A stretch of DNA of 32,000 nt from Lachnospiraceae bacterium (GTDB taxonomy: Bacteria > Bacillota > Clostridia > Lachnospirales > Lachnospiraceae): assembly GCA_045601405.1 (NCBI GenBank), contig JAZRZO010000053.1, positions 41,545-73,544 of the forward strand, given 5' to 3'. This document shows, in pieces, positions 1 to 9,517 of the stretch. Positions within the stretch are counted from its first letter, which is position 1, and every line of letters starts with the position of its first letter. The notes below the pieces were generated by a model, which saw only the letters and a program-made list of their open reading frames with translations, was not told the origin of the DNA and searched no databases. A program made the translations under genes and the position numbers.

Positions 1-1587
1 GAGAGACTTGCTCATCTTTCTTCCCTGATCATCCCTTACAAGACCGGTAAAAAGCACTGTGTCAAACGGCTTTTTACCCATGTGTTCATATCCGGAAAAT
101 ATCATCCTTATGACCCAGAAGAAGATGATGTCATACCCGGTTATCAAAAGATCAGTGGGATAAAAATATTCCAGATCCCCTGTCTTCTCCGGCCAGCCCA
201 GAGTTGAAAATGGCCACAGCGCCGATGAGAACCAGGTATCCAGACAATCTTCATCCTGAGTAAAGCCGGTGCAGCCGCACGCATCACACTTTTCAGGCAC
301 GGTTTTGGCTACGATCATCTTTCCGCATCCGTTACAGTAGTACGCCGGTATACGGTGCCCCCACCACAGCTGTCTGGATATGCACCAGTCTCTGATGTTG
401 TCCGTCCAGTTATGATAGAGCTTGCTCATCCTTGACGGTATCAGACGTACTTCGTTTTCATCCACAGCCTTTATGGCAGGCTTTATAAGCTCGTCCATCT
501 TCACGAACCACTGTTCCTTTATCATGGGTTCTATCACGGCGGAGCACCTGTCATGATGTCCCACTGCGTGTTCATGGTCTTTTATTCCGGCAAGAAGACC
601 CAGACTTTCAAGATCCTCAACCACACTCTTTCTTGCCTGCTCCGTGCTCATTCCCTGATATCTGCCGCCGTTTTCATTTATAGTCCCGTCATCATTGAAA
701 ACGCATATCTCTTCCAGAGAATGACGCTTTCCTATCTCGAAATCGTTAGGGTCATGCGCGGGCGTAACCTTCATTGCTCCCGTTCCGACCTCCATGTCGA
801 TATAATCATCTGCAAGTACCGGTATCCTTCTGTCCATCAGGGGAAGAATGCAGGTTTTGCCGATGAACCTGCGGTAGCGCTCATCATCCGGATGAACTAC
901 AACTGCCGTATCTCCCAGCATAGTCTCCGGCCTCGTCGTCGCTATCTCGATAAATTCATCCGTCCCTTCAACAGGATATTTAATATTCCAGAACCTGCCG
1001 CTTACATCAATGTGTTCCACCTCAGCGTCACTCACCGACGTCATGCACCTGGGACACCAGTTTATTATCTTGGTTCCTTTATAGATCAGGCCTTTTTCAT
1101 ACAGCTTTACAAAAACCTCCAGAACAGCATCAGATACACCTTTGTCCATTGTAAAGCGTTCTCTGTCCCAGTCCGCGCTGCTGCCCAGCTTCTTAAGCTG
1201 GTTCACTATCCGGTCTCCGTATTCCTCCTTCCATTGCCACGCTCGCTCAAGAAAGCCCTCTCTCCCCAAGTCCTCTTTATGTATGCCTTCTTTTTTTAGT
1301 TCTTCAATGATCTTTACCTCAGTCGCTATCGACGCATGGTCGCAGCCCGGCTGCCACAGCGCGTTAAAGCCCTGCATCCTCTTCTGCCTTATCACTATAT
1401 CCTGCAGAGTATTGTTAAGAGCATGCCCCATATGAAGCTGTCCGGTGATATTAGGCGGCGGCATGATGATGGTAAATGGCTTTTTACCCTCATCCGGCTC
1501 GGCATGAAAATATTTATTTTCTACCCAGTCATCATAGATGCGCTGCTCAATACTCTTTGGATCATATGTCTTAGCTAATTCTTTCAT
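1..1587 (-). CDS. valS: Valine--tRNA ligase, N-terminal 529 codons; the 3' end lies beyond the window start
   Basis: Absent from the ORF track because it has no stop inside the window. Minus-strand translation from ATG 1587-1585 reads [90 protein letters not shown]... The class I HIGH motif (HMGH) is present, and KMSKS lies in the same frame at nt 18-4 (..[10 protein letters not shown]). Plus-strand ORFs 553-1578 are its antisense shadows. Confidence 0.95.
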
Positions 1588-2374
1588 AGTAACTTTCTTT
1601 CCACCCGTTTATTATCTTTTCACTGTTTATACCATTTTCAAAATCATATATAAAACTTACGGTTTCCTCGTCCGTTTCTATATCTCTTTTCAGGGCAGCC
1701 ACTCTTGCTTTTACGCCCTCAAGCGCTTCATCCGAAATGCCGTACCTTCTGATAGTATCAAGCAGTTCCTCTTCATCATCACTGACAACAGACATATAAA
1801 GACATGCTTTTATGTATACCGGATCCGGGTACAGCTCGTACGCCTTTGCGAAAAAGGCGTTCGCATTTTTGCTCATGAACAGCCCGGCATATATAACACC
1901 TATCGCATATGCCGCCTTCGCGTAGAACGCCTCGCTCATCTCCTTCCGTTCCGCCTCTTTCAGTATCCCCAGATATATCCTGAGAGCACTGTCATACCTG
2001 CCCCTCTTATAATATCCGTCTGCCTCTATCTTCCGTCTCTCCACATCGCTCATCACGTCTATGTTCATAACATAAGCCGCAACCACACTGAGCTCCGACC
2101 GGCTGTAATAACCGCTTTCCATAAGTATGAAACGTACCAGATTCTTTATTTCGGCCTTTTCCTCACTGAGCTTCCTCAATCCGTCTGCTATATCCTTCCG
2201 CCCAATCTCATTATCGATATAGTCGAAAAGCTCATTGCTAAAAAATTCCCTGTATACCAGATTGATATGGTTGAAGATAAAATAATTTATCTCCTCCAGA
2301 GAATATACCTCTGTTTTTATCTCTTCGATATAATATGGTTTTTTTGCCATCGGCGAGGCAGTGTGCAGTGCCAT
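1571..2374 (-). CDS. Hypothetical protein, 267 aa, TPR-like helical repeats in the C-terminal half
   Basis: ATG 2374 is preceded by GGAGAAGG about 10 nt upstream. The stop TAA 1573-1571 lies 17 nt inside valS (ATGAAAGAATTAGCTAA). TPR-like helix pairs: [55 protein letters not shown]. No catalytic motif recognised. Confidence 0.75.
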
Positions 2375-2392
2375 TTCCTTTTATCCTTCTCC

Positions 2393-3667
2393 TTAAATGT
2401 AGCCCTTAAGATCCAGCTTTTCGCTCACCACAGCTCCGCTCGGTTCAAAGAAACCTCCAAAGCCCAGATCCTTCACGCTTACCGTACATTCATATTCATT
2501 TTCAAATTCGATCGCAAGCTCAACTCTTGTTGCCTTCCTCGGTCTTTTGGGAAAATCCGACAGATCGATATCTGTTATCCCCGTCTGTTTTTCTATCAAA
2601 GATGTGATGTGCAGCCTTATCCTTTCCGGCTCATCCAGGATGAACTCTCTCCGGCAGCCTGCCTCAAACCAGTCCTTTGGCGCAACTGACAGTTCGACCA
2701 GCTTTTTCTCTCCTCTGTCTTCAGCCTCTGCCGATATTGTGCACCTTGTGCGCCCGGCACAGATTATGCGATAATCCCTGCCTCCCGCGGCAGCCTTTAT
2801 AAGGCCGCAGCGGCATGCGCCCTTGGCGTAGATGTTGTTTCCCTTAAAAGCTCTCTTGCTCTCCGAAACAAGGGCAAGAGTCTTTTTAAACCACATATTC
2901 TGAAAGCCCTCACCCGTAAAATATACGCTCGATATCCTTGTGTCGGCGACTATTTCCGCAAAAAGAGCGGAAAGCCTCTCATCCATCTGGTCCATGAGTA
3001 CCTCATTCCCAAGGTTTTCCATGGAGAATTCCCCGGAATGCATACTTTCACTTATATATATGGGGGACAAAGGCTTGTTTCCTGTCACGGTAAGGATCTT
3101 TTCATAAAAACCGTCTCTGTTAAAATCAAAAAGCAGAACTCCCTTTTCCCATATTGCCGGATCCTCACCGAGCACGTAGTACGCAAAGCTCTCTGCGCAG
3201 GTTACAAGCTTTACCTTTTCCGCCGGGATGCGGAGCATCCTGAACACCTCATCCATCGCCCCTCTTATCTCGGGAGTAACGCGTCTGAAGTTCATCGTTA
3301 TATTCTCAACGCCCATTATGGAGGTTGCTGTCTGAGTGTATTCGATCATCTTTGCTATAAATATAGCGAAGAGCTGAGTGTAGGTATATTCCTGTCCGCC
3401 CGCGGTGCACTTTTCTCCTATGAACACATTTTCAAGGAGATCCTGGAAAAGGTAGTCCCCCTGCTCCCTGGCGTAGTCAATGGCACTCTGCCCTATCAGC
3501 CAGTCCTTTTCAGCTTCGTTATAGCTGATGGCAACAGGGATGAGATATCTTATCGCGTCTTTCCCGAAGGCCATTGACTCCGGCCGTCCGTGCCGCCTGG
3601 AGTAACAGCTTACCTGACAATATTCACCTGTATAATCGATCCCGATTATCAATCCTCTTTTTTCCAT
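2393..3667 (-). CDS. Divergent Hsp70/actin-fold (ASKHA) protein, 424 aa, with a short DnaK-like beta-domain tail
   Basis: By-eye motif matches to the Hsp70 nucleotide-binding domain: IIGIDYTGEYCQVS (cf GIDLGTTNSCVAV), VTCAESFAYYVLG (cf INEPTAAALAYG), VLLFDFNRDGFYEKIL (cf VLVFDLGGGTFDVSIL), VYFTGEGF (cf VLLVGGSTRIP). The C-terminal FPKRPRKATRVELAIEFENEYECTVSVKD resembles DnaK [27 protein letters not shown]. ATG 3667-3665 sits 1 nt after the upstream stop (3671-3669). Confidence 0.8.
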   Translation of the reverse strand: MEKRGLIIGIDYTGEYCQVSCYSRRHGRPESMAFGKDAIRYLIPVAISYNEAEKDWLIGQSAIDYAREQGDYLFQDLLENVFIGEKCTAGGQEYTYTQLFAIFIAKMIEYTQTATSIMGVENITMNFRRVTPEIRGAMDEVFRMLRIPAEKVKLVTCAESFAYYVLGEDPAIWEKGVLLFDFNRDGFYEKILTVTGNKPLSPIYISESMHSGEFSMENLGNEVLMDQMDERLSALFAEIVADTRISSVYFTGEGFQNMWFKKTLALVSESKRAFKGNNIYAKGACRCGLIKAAAGGRDYRIICAGRTRCTISAEAEDRGEKKLVELSVAPKDWFEAGCRREFILDEPERIRLHITSLIEKQTGITDIDLSDFPKRPRKATRVELAIEFENEYECTVSVKDLGFGGFFEPSGAVVSEKLDLKGYI

Positions 3668-3668
3668 C

Positions 3669-6600
3669 TTACGAGAATATTCTTTCTATAAGCCTGTCCT
3701 TAATAAAATATTCCTTTGCCGCCAGATTAAGGGCCACGGCGTTCCCCGTCTCGCTCATCTCTACTATATTGTTCAGCTGACTGTATCTGGAGCCGTCGTG
3801 GATTATGCCGAGCTCATCATAGGACGCCCCCTTTATCTCACCGCCATCCACGCTGTATGTAACGCTTTCGCCATAGAAAAGAGTGATGTACTTTGTATAG
3901 CAGCCTTCAAACACCTCCGTAAGCATTTCCTCCTTGAGCACCGCACCTTTGGATGTATGTATCTCAAACGCGATGGATGCCGGCCCTTTAAAGCTTGAGA
4001 TTATCACGGAATTGGAAAGCGCCGCCGGGAGCGGGAAATACTTCCTGTACCTTTTAAACTCCTCCAGCATTATCCCGGATGCCACCAGCTCCTTAATGTT
4101 ATGTTCAACCATTCTCATCCGGTTCACGCCGGATATATCACGCTCTGATTTATACTTAAGGTAAGCCGCCCTGGAAACAATGCTGAGCTGCTCATTTCCG
4201 AGGAGCGCTTTTTCTATATAATTGAAGAATTCTGTATCCTTTTCATTGTCTCCTCTCAGATATAACCCGGCTCTGTAGGTCATATAGTCTTTTTTAAGCT
4301 GCTCATCACCGCCCTCAGTATAATAGCTTGAGAATATCTGTGAGATCACGGGCTCGTCCATACCGGTCTCTATCGCCCTTCTTAATATCGTTTCGGGGAT
4401 ATTTCCGTGATCGGCTCCGAATGCCCTTCCGACCCTGTACAGCTCCAGCAGAACAGCTATGTCCTCATCATAATTATCCACCAGGAATTTATAGACAGCG
4501 CCTGTTCGCGGATCATCCATAAAGCTTTTTACGCACATATCCATCAGCAGACCGTCGCTGTTGAAATTACTGAGTCCGCACAACGCTTCGCACAGTCTTC
4601 CGAGATTCGCGCTGTCTACGTATTCTATGCCCTCTTCCCGGATCTTTTTATATGCGTCCCTGTATAGCTTCTGCTCTATCATTATGCTGATAAGCTTTCC
4701 TTTGGTCGCGCTCTCCAGGTCATATTTGAAAAATTCCATAAGATCTTCATATACGCCGCCCCGGCCTATATTCCGTGAAAAGTAAAGGACAGTATCATTC
4801 ATGAGCTTTTTAACATAGCCTGGTCTGAAAGCGGAGGTGCTCATCTTTGTAGTCATGTATTCAAGTATCTCCGCCGGGTCCTTATAGCCTCGGAGGAAAG
4901 GCATGGTATCACCCATAAGCATGTAATCGCTTATGGGAACTCCCTTTACACATACATCTATATACTCGTCGCTTTTTATAAGTTCTGTTTTTTCATATTC
5001 TATATTGGCATAGATGTTTCCGGTTATGTCTTTAAAGAGGATCACCGCGTCGTGTGAATATATCTTGACCCTTGCCCCTTTGTTCTTAAGAGGAATATCC
5101 TGATATACATTAAGCTCGTCATGAAACACCATGACATTTCTCATTTTTTCGTTATGGCATTTTATTTCCTTTGTGGAGATAACGTCGAAAAATCTTTTTT
5201 TCATTTCCGGCGTAAAGCTGTCCGATGCCACCATATCCATATATATAACGGCAAGATCATGGTCGATCGCGCCTGCCATCAGCTGCCTTGCTCCGTACTC
5301 ATTAAAAGCCTTTTCGTATGCTCTGTAGAATTCCGGCCGCTTCTGCCTGTTGTAAATGATATTGGCAAAAAAATACCTTCTGTGATCAAGCAGCACATCC
5401 ACATTTACTGTAAAATATTCCATTATCCTTACAGGAAGCGCTTCATAGCTGTTTTTATCTATAGTATAGATGTAATAGAAAAATATACCCGGAATGTCGT
5501 CCAGGTATTCCTTTACCGCCGCGTCGTAGTACGCGCCCGCCTCCGCGCTCCTGTCATCCGTAAATATCAGCACCCTGCAGATTATCCTGAGAAGGTCTCT
5601 TGTGGGGTATTTTCTATACATATATCTGAGCACATTCAGTGAAAGAGGGATGTTTCTCTCCTTAAGGTCATCCTCTGTCATCAGCTTAAATATCTCCGTG
5701 ACCCTTGAGCTCATGGTGGGACTGAAATAGTCCATCTTTGCCCCGAGGTTCAGGACTTTTATCTCAAATTCATCAGCATCCGACAAAAACCTCGGATACT
5801 GCCTGAATATATCCAGCGCCTCTAACAGCATTAGTGAGCTTGTGCATCCGGCATCCAGCTCCGCCGATATATCATCCAGCTTAAGCCCCGGAGACTCGTC
5901 ATAGTTTGGGTCCAGCTGAAAAAGCATCCAAAGGATCTGCCACGACGGATGAAGCTGATATTCAGACCTCAAGAGGCTTACAAACTCATCTGTTTTGCTG
6001 CTGTCTCCGTCCGCCAGGGTTTTTACAAAGCTGCAGTAATATTCAAGAACCCTGTCCGCCTCAAGCCTCGGAAGCAGGTCTGAAACATATTCCAGGATGT
6101 TATCCGCCTCCTCCAGCAGGCCTATCTCGATATAAAGCTGAGCCTTGAAAAGCATAAGGAAAACGGATTTATCATCCACCCCGTTGACCTCGCCTATTAT
6201 CTTCAGGGACCGCTGCGCCCACTGCACAGAATCCGTAAGTCCTTTGCGGAACGCAAAGTACACTTTGGTCAGCTCTATGTATTTTTTTCTGGGATTGTGA
6301 TCATCCAGAGTTGTGTTTAATCTCAAATCCACGGTAACAGGCACTGTTATCTCCTGATACGCGGTCCCAAAGGTTATCTTTCCGAAGTTCTTTCCTCTGT
6401 GGAGCTTGTTTTCCAGTATGTTTATCTGAAAGTCGTAGCTTCCCGCAGGAAAAATATCGGATGAGATCACCCTTCTTGAAAGAGAGATGAATTCATCTGC
6501 GGTATATGCTTCTATTTCCATATATCCGTCTTTGGCTATCGCAAGATGGATTACCTCCTGCGTGTCGGCTGTTATATCCGAAAGCTCTATGCTTTCCGGA

Positions 6601-6710
6601 TATACGGCAAAAGCGGCCGGCTCTTTTTTTCCCAGAGCCACCATATATTCTTCTCTTGCTATATTTTTATTTCTGCCTATCATTAAGGCTGATTGAAGCA
6701 GATCTGACAT
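3669..6710 (-). CDS. Large hypothetical protein, 1013 aa; beta-rich N- and C-terminal domains flanking a long alpha-helical repeat region
   Basis: Uninterrupted 3-kb ORF. ATG 6710 lies 6 nt after the rarA stop, with GAGGGGG about 12 nt upstream. The N-terminal ~130 aa look like a beta-sandwich (AFAVYPESIELSD...YQEITVPVTVD). The middle ~750 aa are helical/TPR-like. The C-terminal ~110 aa are beta-rich. No Walker, HExxH, CxxC or other catalytic motif seen. Confidence 0.85.
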   Translation of the reverse strand: MSDLLQSALMIGRNKNIAREEYMVALGKKEPAAFAVYPESIELSDITADTQEVIHLAIAKDGYMEIEAYTADEFISLSRRVISSDIFPAGSYDFQINILENKLHRGKNFGKITFGTAYQEITVPVTVDLRLNTTLDDHNPRKKYIELTKVYFAFRKGLTDSVQWAQRSLKIIGEVNGVDDKSVFLMLFKAQLYIEIGLLEEADNILEYVSDLLPRLEADRVLEYYCSFVKTLADGDSSKTDEFVSLLRSEYQLHPSWQILWMLFQLDPNYDESPGLKLDDISAELDAGCTSSLMLLEALDIFRQYPRFLSDADEFEIKVLNLGAKMDYFSPTMSSRVTEIFKLMTEDDLKERNIPLSLNVLRYMYRKYPTRDLLRIICRVLIFTDDRSAEAGAYYDAAVKEYLDDIPGIFFYYIYTIDKNSYEALPVRIMEYFTVNVDVLLDHRRYFFANIIYNRQKRPEFYRAYEKAFNEYGARQLMAGAIDHDLAVIYMDMVASDSFTPEMKKRFFDVISTKEIKCHNEKMRNVMVFHDELNVYQDIPLKNKGARVKIYSHDAVILFKDITGNIYANIEYEKTELIKSDEYIDVCVKGVPISDYMLMGDTMPFLRGYKDPAEILEYMTTKMSTSAFRPGYVKKLMNDTVLYFSRNIGRGGVYEDLMEFFKYDLESATKGKLISIMIEQKLYRDAYKKIREEGIEYVDSANLGRLCEALCGLSNFNSDGLLMDMCVKSFMDDPRTGAVYKFLVDNYDEDIAVLLELYRVGRAFGADHGNIPETILRRAIETGMDEPVISQIFSSYYTEGGDEQLKKDYMTYRAGLYLRGDNEKDTEFFNYIEKALLGNEQLSIVSRAAYLKYKSERDISGVNRMRMVEHNIKELVASGIMLEEFKRYRKYFPLPAALSNSVIISSFKGPASIAFEIHTSKGAVLKEEMLTEVFEGCYTKYITLFYGESVTYSVDGGEIKGASYDELGIIHDGSRYSQLNNIVEMSETGNAVALNLAAKEYFIKDRLIERIFS

Positions 6711-6716
6711 TATGTC

Positions 6717-8057
6717 TTATTTGCCCCCTCTGTTTTTTAGTCTTAAAAGCCGGTCCTTCATGGTCTTTTCATAGCCCAGATCTCCGGGCTCATAAAACAT
6801 TTCGTCCCTGATCTCGTCCGGAAGATACTGCTGCTCAACATAGTGCTCCGGAAAGTCATGGGCGTATTTATATCCCTTTCCCCTGTTAAGCTCTTTTGCT
6901 CCCGGATAGTGCGCGTCCTGAAGATGGGGCGGCACTGTTTTTATATCTGTATTCCTGACCACATCCATTGCCTTGTCTATGGCCATTACCGCCGAATTGC
7001 TTTTCGGGGCTCCGCATATATAAAGGACTGCCTCGGCCAGTATTATCCTTGCTTCCGGCATACCTGTGACATGTACAGCCTGCTGAGCGGCAACCGCCAC
7101 CTGCAGCGCTCGCGGATCCGCACAGCCCACATCCTCAGCAGCGCATATCATTATCCTTCTGGCAATAAAATTAACATCCTCACCCGCGTACAGCATCTTT
7201 GCCAGATAATATATTGCCGCGTCCGCATCGCTCCCTCTCATGCTCTTTATAAAAGCGGATATCGTATCGTAGTGATTGTCGCCGTTTTTGTCATAGTGTA
7301 CATTCTTTTTCTGTACGCACTGCTCTATCACCTCTGTTGTAAGGCGGATGACCGGGCGCCCGTCCTTGTCCTTAGCTGCCTCTGTCGTCATTACCGCAAG
7401 CTCCACGGCATTGAGCGCTATCCTTGCGTCACCTCCGGCAAGATCGCTCAAAAAATCCAGTGCGTCGTCATCCATTACCGCACCATATGAGCCCATGCCA
7501 CGTTCCTTATCCGTAAGGGCTCTGACTATTATCTTTTTTATATCCTCCCTGTCAAGGGGTTTAAGCTCAAATATGGTAGATCGGCTGATAAGAGCCGGAT
7601 TCACCTCAAAATAGGGGTTTTCCGTTGTGGCCCCTATGAGTATCACCGTACCGTCCTCAACAAAAGGCAGCAGATAATCCTGCTGAGCCTTGTTGAACCT
7701 GTGTATCTCGTCGATGAACAGTATGGTTCTGCGGCCGTAAGCCCCTCTTGTCACCTTTGCCTGCTCAACAATGTTCACCATATCCTTTTTCCCCGATATG
7801 GTCGCGTTTATCTGTTTAAACTCAGCCGCTGTCGTGTTGGCTATTACCCTTGCAAGCGTGGTCTTTCCGGTGCCGCTCGGCCCGTAAAAAATGACGGATG
7901 AAAGCTTGTCTGCCATAATGGAGCGGTAGAGATGACTGCCCTCCTTAAGGATATGCTTCTGTCCTTCAAACTCGTCGAGCGTCTCCGGCCTGAGTCTGGA
8001 TGCAAGCGGAGCCTCTTGTTTTATCTTATTTTTATGCGCGTACTCAAACAGGTCCAC
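6717..8057 (-). CDS. rarA: Replication-associated recombination protein A (AAA+ ATPase RarA/MgsA)
   Basis: 446 aa. Walker A GPSGTGKTT, Walker B LFIDEIHRFNKAQQD, MgsA-type C-terminal domain (HYDTISAFIKSMRGSDADAAIYYLAKML). The start is GTG 8057-8055, 2 nt after the citrate synthase stop TAG 8062-8060. Confidence 0.93.
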   Translation of the reverse strand: MDLFEYAHKNKIKQEAPLASRLRPETLDEFEGQKHILKEGSHLYRSIMADKLSSVIFYGPSGTGKTTLARVIANTTAAEFKQINATISGKKDMVNIVEQAKVTRGAYGRRTILFIDEIHRFNKAQQDYLLPFVEDGTVILIGATTENPYFEVNPALISRSTIFELKPLDREDIKKIIVRALTDKERGMGSYGAVMDDDALDFLSDLAGGDARIALNAVELAVMTTEAAKDKDGRPVIRLTTEVIEQCVQKKNVHYDKNGDNHYDTISAFIKSMRGSDADAAIYYLAKMLYAGEDVNFIARRIMICAAEDVGCADPRALQVAVAAQQAVHVTGMPEARIILAEAVLYICGAPKSNSAVMAIDKAMDVVRNTDIKTVPPHLQDAHYPGAKELNRGKGYKYAHDFPEHYVEQQYLPDEIRDEMFYEPGDLGYEKTMKDRLLRLKNRGGK

Positions 8058-8059
8058 TT

Positions 8060-9439
8060 CTATCTTTTACTTATCGGAACATACTTTTGGTGTTTAACAA
8101 CATTTTTATAAGCCGGACGTATTATCTTGTTCCCGGATGTAAGCTCCTCTATCCTGTGAGCCGACCAGCCCGCCATCCTTGATATGGCAAAAAGCGGCGT
8201 GAACAGCTCCTCCGGAAGACCCAAAAGCCTGTAAACAAAGCCGGAATAAAAGTCCACATTCACAGAGATATTTTCCCTGTACATGTACCGGTTGCCCGTG
8301 ATGACCTCCGGGGCGATATTTTCCACCCTTTCGTAGAAGGCGAATTCGTCCATTGCGCCCTTCTTTTCTGCAAGCGTCTTGGCGAACCGTTTAAGCAGAA
8401 CAGCCCTCGGGTCGGATATTGAATAAACCGCATGGCCGACTCCGTATATCAGCTTCTGCCTGTCGTATGCCCTGCCCTTAAGTATCTTTTCAAGCTGCTT
8501 TCTTATCTGTTCGTCGTCCGTGATGTCACTTACATTCTTTTTGATGTTGTCCATCATCCCCACGACCTTAATGTTCGCCCCGCCGTGCCTCGGCCCCTTA
8601 AGTGAACCAAGTGACGCCGCCATAGCGGAATATGTGTCGGTAAGTGTTGATGTCACCACCCTGTTCGTGAAGGTGGAGTTATTACCGCCGCCGTGATCCG
8701 CGTGAAGGATCAGGCACAGATCCAGCACCATCGCCTCTAATTTTGTGAAGCTGCTGTCGTCCCTTAAAAGGTGAAGAATTGTTTCTGCCGTTCCCATCTC
8801 TTCGGACGGCTGATGTATCACAAGGCTTCCGCCCTCTTTATAATGTTTAAAGGCCTGATATCCGTAAACAGTGAGCAGGGGCATTACCGATATAAGCTGC
8901 ACGCACTGCCTAAGCACATTGTCTATTGAAACATCATCCGCCTTGCTGTCATATGGATATAGCGTAAGTATGCTCCGGGAAAGAGTATTCATCATCTCTT
9001 TGCTGGGAGCCTTCATTATCACGTCCCTTACAAAGTTTGTGGGCAGGCTTCTGTATGATGAAAGAACCTGTGTAAATTCCTTCAGCGCTGCGCGCTTCGG
9101 CAGTTCTCCGAAAATGAGCAGATATGCCGTTTCCTCAAACCCGTACCTTTGCTCCTTCGCGATAGCCTTTACCAGATCCTCAACATTATATCCCCTGTAA
9201 TAAAGTTTTCCGGGACACGGTACTATCTCATCATCATCGATGGTATAGGACTTTACTTCCGCTATATTTGTAAGGCCGGTGAGCACGCCCTTTCCGGTAA
9301 GGTCTCTGAGTCCTCTTTTAACATTGTATTTACTGTAGAGTCCGGTATCTATCTTATTATTTGTCGCGCAAAGCTGCGCCAGCTTTTTTATCTCCGGAGT
9401 TGTATCCGAATAGATGTTTACTTCCTTTTTCTTCGTCAT
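8060..9439 (-). CDS. Citrate synthase
   Basis: 459 aa. Citrate synthase signatures LILHADHGGGNNSTF, GPRHGGAN, GVGHAVYSISDPRA, NVDFYSG. SD AAAGGAG lies 5 nt upstream of ATG 9439. Confidence 0.9.
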   Translation of the reverse strand: MTKKKEVNIYSDTTPEIKKLAQLCATNNKIDTGLYSKYNVKRGLRDLTGKGVLTGLTNIAEVKSYTIDDDEIVPCPGKLYYRGYNVEDLVKAIAKEQRYGFEETAYLLIFGELPKRAALKEFTQVLSSYRSLPTNFVRDVIMKAPSKEMMNTLSRSILTLYPYDSKADDVSIDNVLRQCVQLISVMPLLTVYGYQAFKHYKEGGSLVIHQPSEEMGTAETILHLLRDDSSFTKLEAMVLDLCLILHADHGGGNNSTFTNRVVTSTLTDTYSAMAASLGSLKGPRHGGANIKVVGMMDNIKKNVSDITDDEQIRKQLEKILKGRAYDRQKLIYGVGHAVYSISDPRAVLLKRFAKTLAEKKGAMDEFAFYERVENIAPEVITGNRYMYRENISVNVDFYSGFVYRLLGLPEELFTPLFAISRMAGWSAHRIEELTSGNKIIRPAYKNVVKHQKYVPISKR

Positions 9440-9488
9440 CTACACTCCTTTCATTATCATTTTCATGTCTGAAAACAGGCAAATTTAA

Positions 9489-9517
9489 ATGGTAAATGAT
9501 TGAAAATATTTTGTCAA
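9489..9517 (-). promoter_or_regulatory. Candidate sigma-A promoter for the citrate synthase-to-valS string
   Basis: Minus strand: TTGACA (9517-9512), 17 nt spacer, TACCAT (9494-9489), about 45 nt upstream of ATG 9439. This is the only promoter-like signal I see upstream of the 9.4-kb gene string. Confidence 0.4.

Follow-up and report, generated by a model that had tools for sequence, protein, structure and literature searches.

A three-gene module of Lachnospiraceae around a degenerate, lidless Hsp70-like protein, with a TPR-like protein and a predicted giant helical-repeat scaffold

Canonical Hsp70 chaperones, such as DnaK with DnaJ and GrpE, consist of an actin-like nucleotide-binding domain (NBD), a hydrophobic linker and a beta-sandwich substrate-binding domain (SBD), completed by an alpha-helical lid and a C-terminal tail in a chain of ~610-640 residues. 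Atypical lidless Hsp70s with a shortened SBD are found in the ribosome-associated complex (RAC) of fungi, where Ssz1 is paired with Zuo1, and in mammals, where HSPA14 is paired with MPP11; Ssz1 does not go through ATPase cycling and binds its partner permanently. In parallel, Hsp70-family proteins are combined with tetratricopeptide repeat (TPR) adaptors such as Hop/Sti1, SGTA, CHIP, Tom70 and Tah1, which clamp a free EEVD-COOH tail, and long right-handed arrays of helical hairpins of the TPR/HAT type (Ctr9, Ski3/TTC37, Naa15, IFT-A, APC/C) serve as protein-binding platforms. Here we describe a locus that bears a likeness to each of these, in a 32,000-nucleotide stretch of a Lachnospiraceae bacterium (GenBank assembly GCA_045601405.1, contig JAZRZO010000053.1, positions 41,545 to 73,544), which as a whole we call the window. 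Three consecutive minus-strand genes, named genes 1, 2 and 3 in the order of their transcription and given in window numbering (Table 1), encode a DUF5717 protein, a DUF5716 protein and a TPR-like protein. We tentatively propose, with a confidence slightly short of even, that their products form one stable, non-enzymatic cytoplasmic complex, specific to Lachnospiraceae and built around a pseudo-Hsp70, working as a chaperone-like or assembly scaffold. By analogy, the Ssz1-Zuo1 RAC would be its closest functional counterpart, having arisen independently and with other partners.

The central evidence comes from gene 2, which the initial annotation, made from the letters alone, had taken for a degenerate Hsp70, and the searches bear this out. 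The gene 2 profile found the DnaK NBD in the PDB at 1.2e-5, hhalign aligned it with DnaK over residues 5-197 at 89 % probability, and Hsp70-like landmarks were recognised in an alignment of 58 homologues. The AlphaFold2 (AF2) model, with a predicted local distance difference test score (pLDDT) of 91 and a predicted template modelling score (pTM) of 0.88, had only Hsp70, Hsp110 or Ssz1 structures among its top 50 Foldseek matches; the best were those of lid-truncated DnaK (7krv/7kru, E 1e-20, query-based TM-score TMq 0.61-0.63), over ~530 columns covering the NBD and the beta SBD, and the RAC-type entries 6sr6 and 7x3k were also matched. Actin-like NBD, hydrophobic linker and beta-sandwich SBD follow each other in the same order as in canonical Hsp70s, with equivalents of the motifs GIDxG, (N)E..A.AY, xGG and A.GAA in the NBD and PxRP...D.G.G in the SBD. 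In the latter domain, gene 2 residues 364-405 (FPKRPRKATRVELAIEF...VSVKDLGFGG) align locally with DnaK 454-495 (INPAPRGMPQIEVTFDI...VSAKDKNSGK), bringing the gene 2 motif P373-x-R375-P...D400-x-G402-F-G404 into register with DnaK. For the second NBD lobe, local hhalign could not align the sequence with DnaK, and the assignment of this lobe is therefore structure-based. We conclude from profiles and model that gene 2 encodes a protein of Hsp70 ancestry with a predicted NBD plus beta SBD architecture.

Unlike canonical Hsp70s, this protein has only 424 residues and stops 4-5 residues after the last beta-strand of the AF2 model, and therefore it has neither the helical lid nor the C-terminal tail; the stop right after the beta-domain is common to all of the 58-75 aligned homologues. 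Neither the Pfam HSP70 model (PF00012) nor the NCBIfam DnaK models match it at E <= 0.1, and no DnaJ/J-domain or GrpE domain was found in the three proteins or in their conserved neighbours. What it does match is Pfam DUF5716_C (PF18980; 3.2e-72, 243.4 bits vs a cut-off of 34.7, residues 123-420), while gene 1 matches DUF5717_N (PF18984; 5e-148, 494.9 bits) and DUF5717 (PF18983; 2.8e-43, 148.7 bits), both with a cut-off of 25, so the family labels suggested in the initial annotation were the right ones.

The putative ATP site was followed column by column over 75 DUF5716 family members, using a DnaK catalytic numbering that we take to be D8, K70, E171, D194 and G196-T199. The equivalent of D8 is D11 of gene 2, with Asp in 71/75. 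At the K70 position (column 75), Asp is found in 47/75 and Gln in the window protein; at the E171 position (column 155), the residue is Leu, Gln, Ile or Met, and a Glu conserved at 92 % (E159, at the place of DnaK A175) lies four residues downstream. The phosphate-2 Asp, D194 of DnaK and D181 here, is Asp in 54 of the 75 members and Ala in 8, and the loop corresponding to G196-G198/T199 (columns 183-186) is variable. Only the D8 equivalent is thus conserved from the canonical catalytic set. In addition, D181 is separated from G252-x-G254 by 71 residues, which form two helices in the model, as compared with 147 residues in DnaK, and subdomain IIB, to which GrpE binds and which forms a large part of the adenine pocket, is therefore largely deleted. 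From these columns, a canonical ATPase cycle in the gene 2 product seems unlikely.

The strongest evidence available that the Hsp70-like and the TPR-like proteins would act as one unit is a natural fusion of their genes. In-frame DUF5716-gene 3 fusions of 702-726 residues were found as five cluster representatives that are less than 50 % identical to each other (P0250, P0281, P0321, P0323 and P0337), each built from a complete DUF5716 protein, a linker of 20-30 residues and a complete gene 3 protein with all the signature motifs kept; their Pfam DUF5716_C scores go from 1.6e-54 to 6.3e-90. The fusions occur in Candidatus Scybalocola, a Lachnospiraceae genus, and in related uncultured Lachnospiraceae, where the module consists of two genes, and dozens of contigs (37 for P0352 alone) carry independent assemblies of a 709-residue fusion from Ca. 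Scybalocola. In one such locus (L081:4444-10130), a DUF5717 gene of 1181 codons is followed after 11 nucleotides by the fused gene, there is no separate gene 3, and valS lies ~4.7 kb away. The fusion thus supports a physical interaction between the two proteins and suggests that the gene 3 product has its N-terminus next to where the beta-domain ends; structural studies could use the fusion protein directly as a construct. A 1626-residue open reading frame (ORF) in another locus (L034:6383-11263) was considered as a DUF5717-DUF5716 fusion and rejected as a probable frameshift or assembly error in a metagenome-assembled genome (MAG), given that its junction translates into ~60 residues of meaningless low-complexity sequence.

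The three genes also travel together, as the initial annotation had suggested should be looked for in related genomes. Two sets were used: 80 genome loci found through DUF5716, with counts over the evaluable ones, and 80 metagenome loci found through DUF5717 by a scan with a four-sequence alignment of its long form. In the genome set, DUF5717 is directly upstream of DUF5716 in 64/66 loci and gene 3 directly downstream in 77/77, with median spacers of 12-14 nucleotides; in the metagenome set, which holds many near-identical contigs and is less diverse than its size suggests, DUF5716 follows DUF5717 in 68/68 and gene 3 comes next in 62/62. The synteny of the trio is therefore near-obligatory, and the idea that gene 3 is confined to a close clade was discarded. 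Unrelated genes take the place of DUF5717 directly upstream of DUF5716 and gene 3 in two loci (L039:9932-12187 and L076:8436-10502). Compared with a 96 %-identical relative (L084), the ratios of nonsynonymous to synonymous substitution rates (dN/dS) of genes 1, 2 and 3 are 0.080, 0.063 and 0.037, in the range of the neighbours citrate synthase (0.044), rarA (0.086) and valS (0.055) for the same genome pair. Because of this range, and because the order is kept in more than 140 independent loci, the three ORFs are real genes under purifying selection at short range. Over long distances, the trio diverges 2-3 times faster than its neighbours, with median identities to the window of 23, 27 and 28 % for genes 1, 2 and 3 vs 65 % for rarA and 64 % for valS, and all three drift together; this joint fast divergence is more in keeping with co-evolving interaction surfaces than with enzymes.

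A DUF5716 match was found in at least 563 species genomes, almost all of them Lachnospiraceae, which are among the most abundant human and animal gut bacteria; the trio is family-wide and strongly selected, and has no assigned function. Carriers include the cultured Blautia wexlerae, Cuneatibacter caecimuris and [Clostridium] asparagiforme, in which genetics is feasible, besides Hominifimenecus and Fusibacillus, and MAGs of Butyrivibrio and Catonella. Three contigs labelled as Ruthenibacterium lactatiformans (L014), Treponemataceae bacterium (L015) and Anaerotignum sp. (L016) bear a Lachnospiraceae-type module with a DUF5716 protein 38-43 % identical to that of the window; the latter two have the full rarA-trio-valS arrangement, and the first is a short contig with the end of DUF5716, gene 3 and valS only. 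Most likely these reflect bin contamination or mislabelling and not a presence outside the family.

The gene 1 product is, according to its model, a scaffold with a TPR-like superhelix that Ig-like beta-sandwiches interrupt and cap. With a pLDDT of 86 and a pTM of 0.52, its domains are good and their mutual orientation is uncertain. The expectation of beta-sandwich-like ends with a long helical-repeat region between them agrees with the model, which has sandwiches near both ends and ~690 residues of TPR-like repeats, and to this the model adds a central beta-domain that divides the helical region in two. Among the folded domains this central one is conserved best, with a mean top-residue frequency of 0.46 that is exceeded in the protein only by the short helices at the N-terminus (0.52), and Phe1012 at the C-terminal end is near-invariant. 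The first sandwich gave local Foldseek matches to the ASH domain of OCRL1 (3qbt_F, target-based TM-score TMt 0.61), Caf1M and a GH115 C-domain, and the whole model retrieved generic TPR/HAT superhelices (Ctr9, Ski3/TTC37, IFT-A, Naa15, APC/C) at TM-scores of 0.1-0.2; no enzyme fold was among the Foldseek matches, and the DUF5717 profile had no match in the PDB. The likeness to the known TPR/HAT scaffolds lies in the long right-handed array of helical hairpins; no sequence similarity between them and gene 1 was found, and, unlike them, gene 1 is bacterial and has three interspersed Ig-like or small beta-domains. The DUF5717_N match of gene 1 begins at profile position 167 of 875, the first domain being absent. 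This short form (1011-1060 residues) belongs to the clade of the window, and most other Lachnospiraceae have 1175-1205 residues, with an extra N-terminal domain of ~160 residues (residues 1 to ~165 of P0134-P0139, compared with window 6210-6710) that, from its sequence, looks like another beta-sandwich.

The gene 3 product was expected to be TPR-like, and by sequence it is weakly so. Its profile matched in the PDB a designed TPR (0.004) and SGTA (0.0075), then Tom70 and Tah1, within a range of 0.004-0.1, the TPR domains of SGTA, Tom70 and Tah1 being its nearest natural matches; some homologues (P0167, P0170 and P0173) have precomputed Pfam TPR matches, and the fusion P0337 reaches TPR_1 at E 4.1e-5 with 23.6 bits vs a cut-off of 27.8. 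The repeats are preceded by a well-conserved N-terminal domain (residues 1-100) with a PYYI... motif, in which P13, Y14, E27, E28 and Y31 are conserved at 91 % or more, and are followed by a variable helical tail. A hidden Markov model search of 1.84 billion representatives returned 981 relatives at E <= 1e-10, and nearly all of the best 150 of these 981 have 235-295 residues. As a speculation, the PYYI segment could serve as a pseudo-substrate of the SBD; the segment resembles part of a folded domain. An EEVD-style clamp of the gene 3 TPR on the gene 2 tail EGYI-COOH was also considered and rejected, given that this tail is conserved only in the clade of the window and is replaced elsewhere by FLIS, ELLL, TVEW and others. 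Unlike in the Hsp70-TPR co-chaperones, a carboxylate-clamp mode is therefore unlikely, because the C-terminus of gene 2 varies and, in the fusions, continues into gene 3.

No enzyme family or fold was found for any of the three proteins in Pfam, NCBIfam and the PDB, nor with Foldseek for the modelled products of genes 1 and 2, in agreement with the earlier failure to recognise any enzymatic motif; NCBIfam has no family for any of them, and single-sequence phmmer searches of the PDB gave no match for any of the three.

In the mechanism that we propose, the core of the complex would be the gene 2 protein, which has kept its NBD docked on the beta SBD and has lost its lid and the greater part of subdomain IIB. 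Given the non-conserved Lys, Glu and P-loop together with the lost lid and IIB, we suggest that the ATP-driven clamp cycle has been lost and that the protein may act, in the manner of Ssz1, as an adaptor that is structural or grips peptides constitutively. The gene 3 product would pair with it obligatorily, one to one, and be attached near the C-terminal end of the beta-domain; the gene 1 product, with its long TPR-like superhelix and Ig-like domains, would offer a platform for other proteins; and translational coupling would deliver the subunits together, in what may be a fixed stoichiometry, so that the output would be the holding, assembling or tethering of clients rather than catalysis. 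In contrast to RAC, the partners here are a TPR-like protein and a giant solenoid instead of a J-domain protein, the NBD of Ssz1 is full-size, and ribosome association is known for RAC only. For a RAC-like stable heterodimer, in which the partner occupies the SBD, the obligate adjacency of genes 2 and 3 and their natural fusion give indirect support. A bolder version, which we find less likely than not, would make the module a new class of bacterial Hsp70-derived machine, lidless, nucleotide-independent, firmly linked or even fused to a TPR-like adaptor, mounted on a giant TPR/Ig scaffold, free of J-protein and exchange factor, independently evolved and dedicated to a core task of Lachnospiraceae, for instance RAC-like co-translational or assembly chaperoning. 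What was already known is that the families of genes 1 and 2 are catalogued as DUFs and that gene 3 has no family entry; for the Hsp70 nature of gene 2, the obligate three-gene organisation, the gene 3 family and the fusion, we found no earlier description. If right, this reading of gene 2 would set beside the "structural" Hsp70s studied in chaperone research, so far mainly eukaryotic (Ssz1, HSPA14), a counterpart from bacteria, and it makes two DUF entries and an unclassified family the subject of a concrete hypothesis that can be tested.

Several points weigh against this proposal. The cleft residues G9, D11, E159, G252, G254 and G283 of gene 2 are conserved at 92 % or more, and because the cleft glycines and E159 are kept, nucleotide binding, or even a non-canonical hydrolysis via E159, may have been retained. 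A Lys is present one column beyond the K70 position in 21/75 family members, never in the clade of the window. The assignment of the beta-domain is weakly backed by sequence (E 0.014 for the local alignment given above) and leans on the predicted structure; the gene 3 protein of the window stays under the Pfam cut-offs for TPR_12 (E 7e-4, 20.2 bits vs 30.1) and TPR_2 (19.7 vs 27); and a literature search on DUF5716/DUF5717 and atypical bacterial Hsp70s returned nothing on function or structure.

One rival is an active, specialised Hsp70 machine with a rewired ATP site (D11, E159, and Lys76 in some lineages), in which gene 3 and/or DUF5717 would replace the J-protein and the exchange factor and a dedicated client would be captured and released. 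We regard it as unlikely. That G9, D11, E159, G252, G254, F255, G283 and A284 are the most conserved residues of the protein, that the NBD-linker-SBD architecture is fully kept, and that dedicated Hsp70 systems with private partners exist, such as HscA/HscB, all speak for such a machine; it would have to work, however, with non-conserved K70 and E171 columns and GGG-T loop, with a phosphate-2 Asp turned into Ala in one subclade, without the subdomain IIB that contributes much of the adenine pocket, without a lid to trap the substrate and without any J-domain in the module. Fairly improbable, in our judgement, is a membrane-proximal or cytoskeleton-like assembly, a coat or tether for envelope, division or shape, in which gene 1 would be architectural and the Hsp70-like/TPR pair an assembly or disassembly factor. 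The combination of beta-sandwich and alpha-solenoid is typical of coat and tether proteins, IFT-A and nucleoporin-type structures were among the Foldseek matches, the module evolves fast in the way of structural proteins, and a coiled-coil/transmembrane-hairpin gene follows gene 3 in 16/80 loci. The window and 64/80 loci, however, do not have this transmembrane partner, reading the sequences shows no signal peptide or transmembrane segment in any protein of the trio, the TM-scores to coat proteins (0.1-0.2) express generic repeat similarity only, and no division or shape genes are linked in the neighbourhoods or in the window. Of the initial suggestion of a dedicated chaperone, assembly or cytoskeleton-like machine, the cytoskeleton-like part gained no support.

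The remaining two readings have much less in their favour. A morphogenetic module for sporulation or germination in Clostridia would be in line with the restriction to one family of this class, and the valS-folC region of Bacillus neighbours spoVID; we consider it very unlikely, given that some carriers of the module belong to genera not known to sporulate (Blautia wexlerae, Butyrivibrio, Catonella), that it stands in the window within a tightly packed string of constitutive housekeeping genes, and that no sporulation genes are nearby in the neighbourhoods or in the window. An anti-phage defence or conflict system, with an Hsp70-like sensor and repeat-protein partners, might explain the fast divergence at long distance, and Hsp70-like NBDs and TPR proteins do occur in some predicted conflict systems. 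This one is largely refuted: the PADLOC models and PHROGs gave 0 matches for all three proteins, the module has a fixed chromosomal position with vertical inheritance between housekeeping genes across the family, its dN/dS of 0.04-0.08 is in the range of the neighbours, its composition is native, and it has no effector domain.

Table 1. Coordinates of the module, its predicted domains and the adjoining genes in the window
Feature	Position	Strand	Evidence
Gene 1, DUF5717 protein, 1013 aa	3669..6710	-	ORF, Pfam, AF2 model, Foldseek
Gene 1, aa 1-25, predicted helices			AF2 model
Gene 1, aa 33-129, predicted N-terminal beta-sandwich (ASH/PapD/Ig-like)	6324..6614	-	DSSP of model, local Foldseek
Gene 1, aa 140-511, predicted first alpha-solenoid, TPR-like helical pairs	5178..6293	-	Model, Foldseek
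Gene 1, aa 513-576, predicted central small beta-domain	4983..5174	-	Model, column conservation
Gene 1, aa 580-899, predicted second alpha-solenoid	4014..4973	-	Model
Gene 1, aa 901-1012, predicted beta-sandwich (901-963) and helical hairpin (975-1012)	3675..4010	-	Model, conservation
Gene 1/gene 2 junction TAA-G-ATG, 1-nt spacer (position 3668)	3665..3671	-	Sequence read
Gene 2, DUF5716 protein, 424 aa, predicted lidless mini-Hsp70	2393..3667	-	Pfam, profile vs PDB, AF2, Foldseek
Gene 2, aa 1-295, predicted Hsp70-type NBD, subdomain IIB reduced to two helices	2783..3667	-	hhalign, column statistics
Gene 2, aa 305-424, predicted Hsp70 SBD-beta-like sandwich, protein end directly after	2396..2755	-	Foldseek, local alignment
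Gene 3, 267 aa, without Pfam/NCBIfam family	1571..2374	-	ORF, family searches, profile vs PDB
Gene 3, aa 107-200, 2-3 TPR-like repeats	1775..2056	-	Pfam TPR scores, profile vs PDB
Gene 3 end/valS start, 17-nt overlap	1571..1587	-	Sequence read
rarA/mgsA (context, outside module)	6717..8057	-	MgsA_C 6e-71 and AAA
valS, 5' part (context)	1..1587	-	N-terminus with HMGH motif

The layout of the locus had been given correctly at the outset: the coordinates of the three ORFs, the 1- and 18-nucleotide spacers, the 6 nucleotides behind rarA, the overlap with valS and the identity of both flanking genes were all recovered exactly on reading the sequence and searching the flanks. The junction of genes 1 and 2 is, by its sequence, of the type expected for termination-reinitiation coupling, and the spacer between genes 2 and 3 (2375-2392) carries AAGGAG. 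The 6 nucleotides lie between the TAA of rarA and the ATG of gene 1, and the end of rarA contains a G-rich ribosome-binding site; at the other side, the valS ATG is at 1587 and the gene 3 stop at 1571-1573. The citrate synthase stop lies 2 nucleotides ahead of the rarA start, which is a GTG, and no convincing intrinsic terminator was found at any of these gene boundaries. The public gene calls start later, with 1004 residues for gene 1 (P0121) vs 1013 and 259 for gene 3 (P0140) vs 267, the differences mapping to window 6684-6710 and 2351-2374, respectively; in the case of gene 1, residues 2-10 (SDLLQSAL.) are kept across homologues, which favours the longer start.

A conserved linkage to rarA and valS was found only in part: rarA is adjacent in 31/60 genome loci, and valS is adjacent in 15/64 and within 6 kb in a further 13/64, so the linkage is partly kept and not obligatory, and looks like an eroding ancestral synteny and not a functional coupling. 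The remaining genes of the window are ordinary housekeeping ones (nrdD/nrdG, M18 aminopeptidase, malic enzyme, purL), and the base composition is uniform and native, with no signs of mobility. Window 1-17500 is occupied on the minus strand by a near-unbroken co-directional string of nrdD/nrdG, a PAP2-domain protein, the M18 aminopeptidase, citrate synthase, rarA, the trio and valS; the GC skew is negative throughout this part and switches sign near 18 kb.

Two further genes recur near the module in other loci. The transmembrane-hairpin gene of the 16 loci mentioned above (Butyrivibrio-type and others) begins 0-43 nucleotides downstream of gene 3, as in L017:12142-13380, L018:7305-8483, L023:12105-13298 and L039:12187-13377, and overlaps gene 3 by 16 nucleotides in L038; its product, of 372-412 residues, is a coiled-coil protein with a central two-helix hairpin and without a Pfam family, which could act as a membrane anchor of the module in these lineages. 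Downstream of valS, in 14/80 loci (e.g., L026:15212-16693), there is also a protein of 436-493 residues made of a zinc ribbon, TPR, a transmembrane segment and more TPR, which is probably just local synteny.

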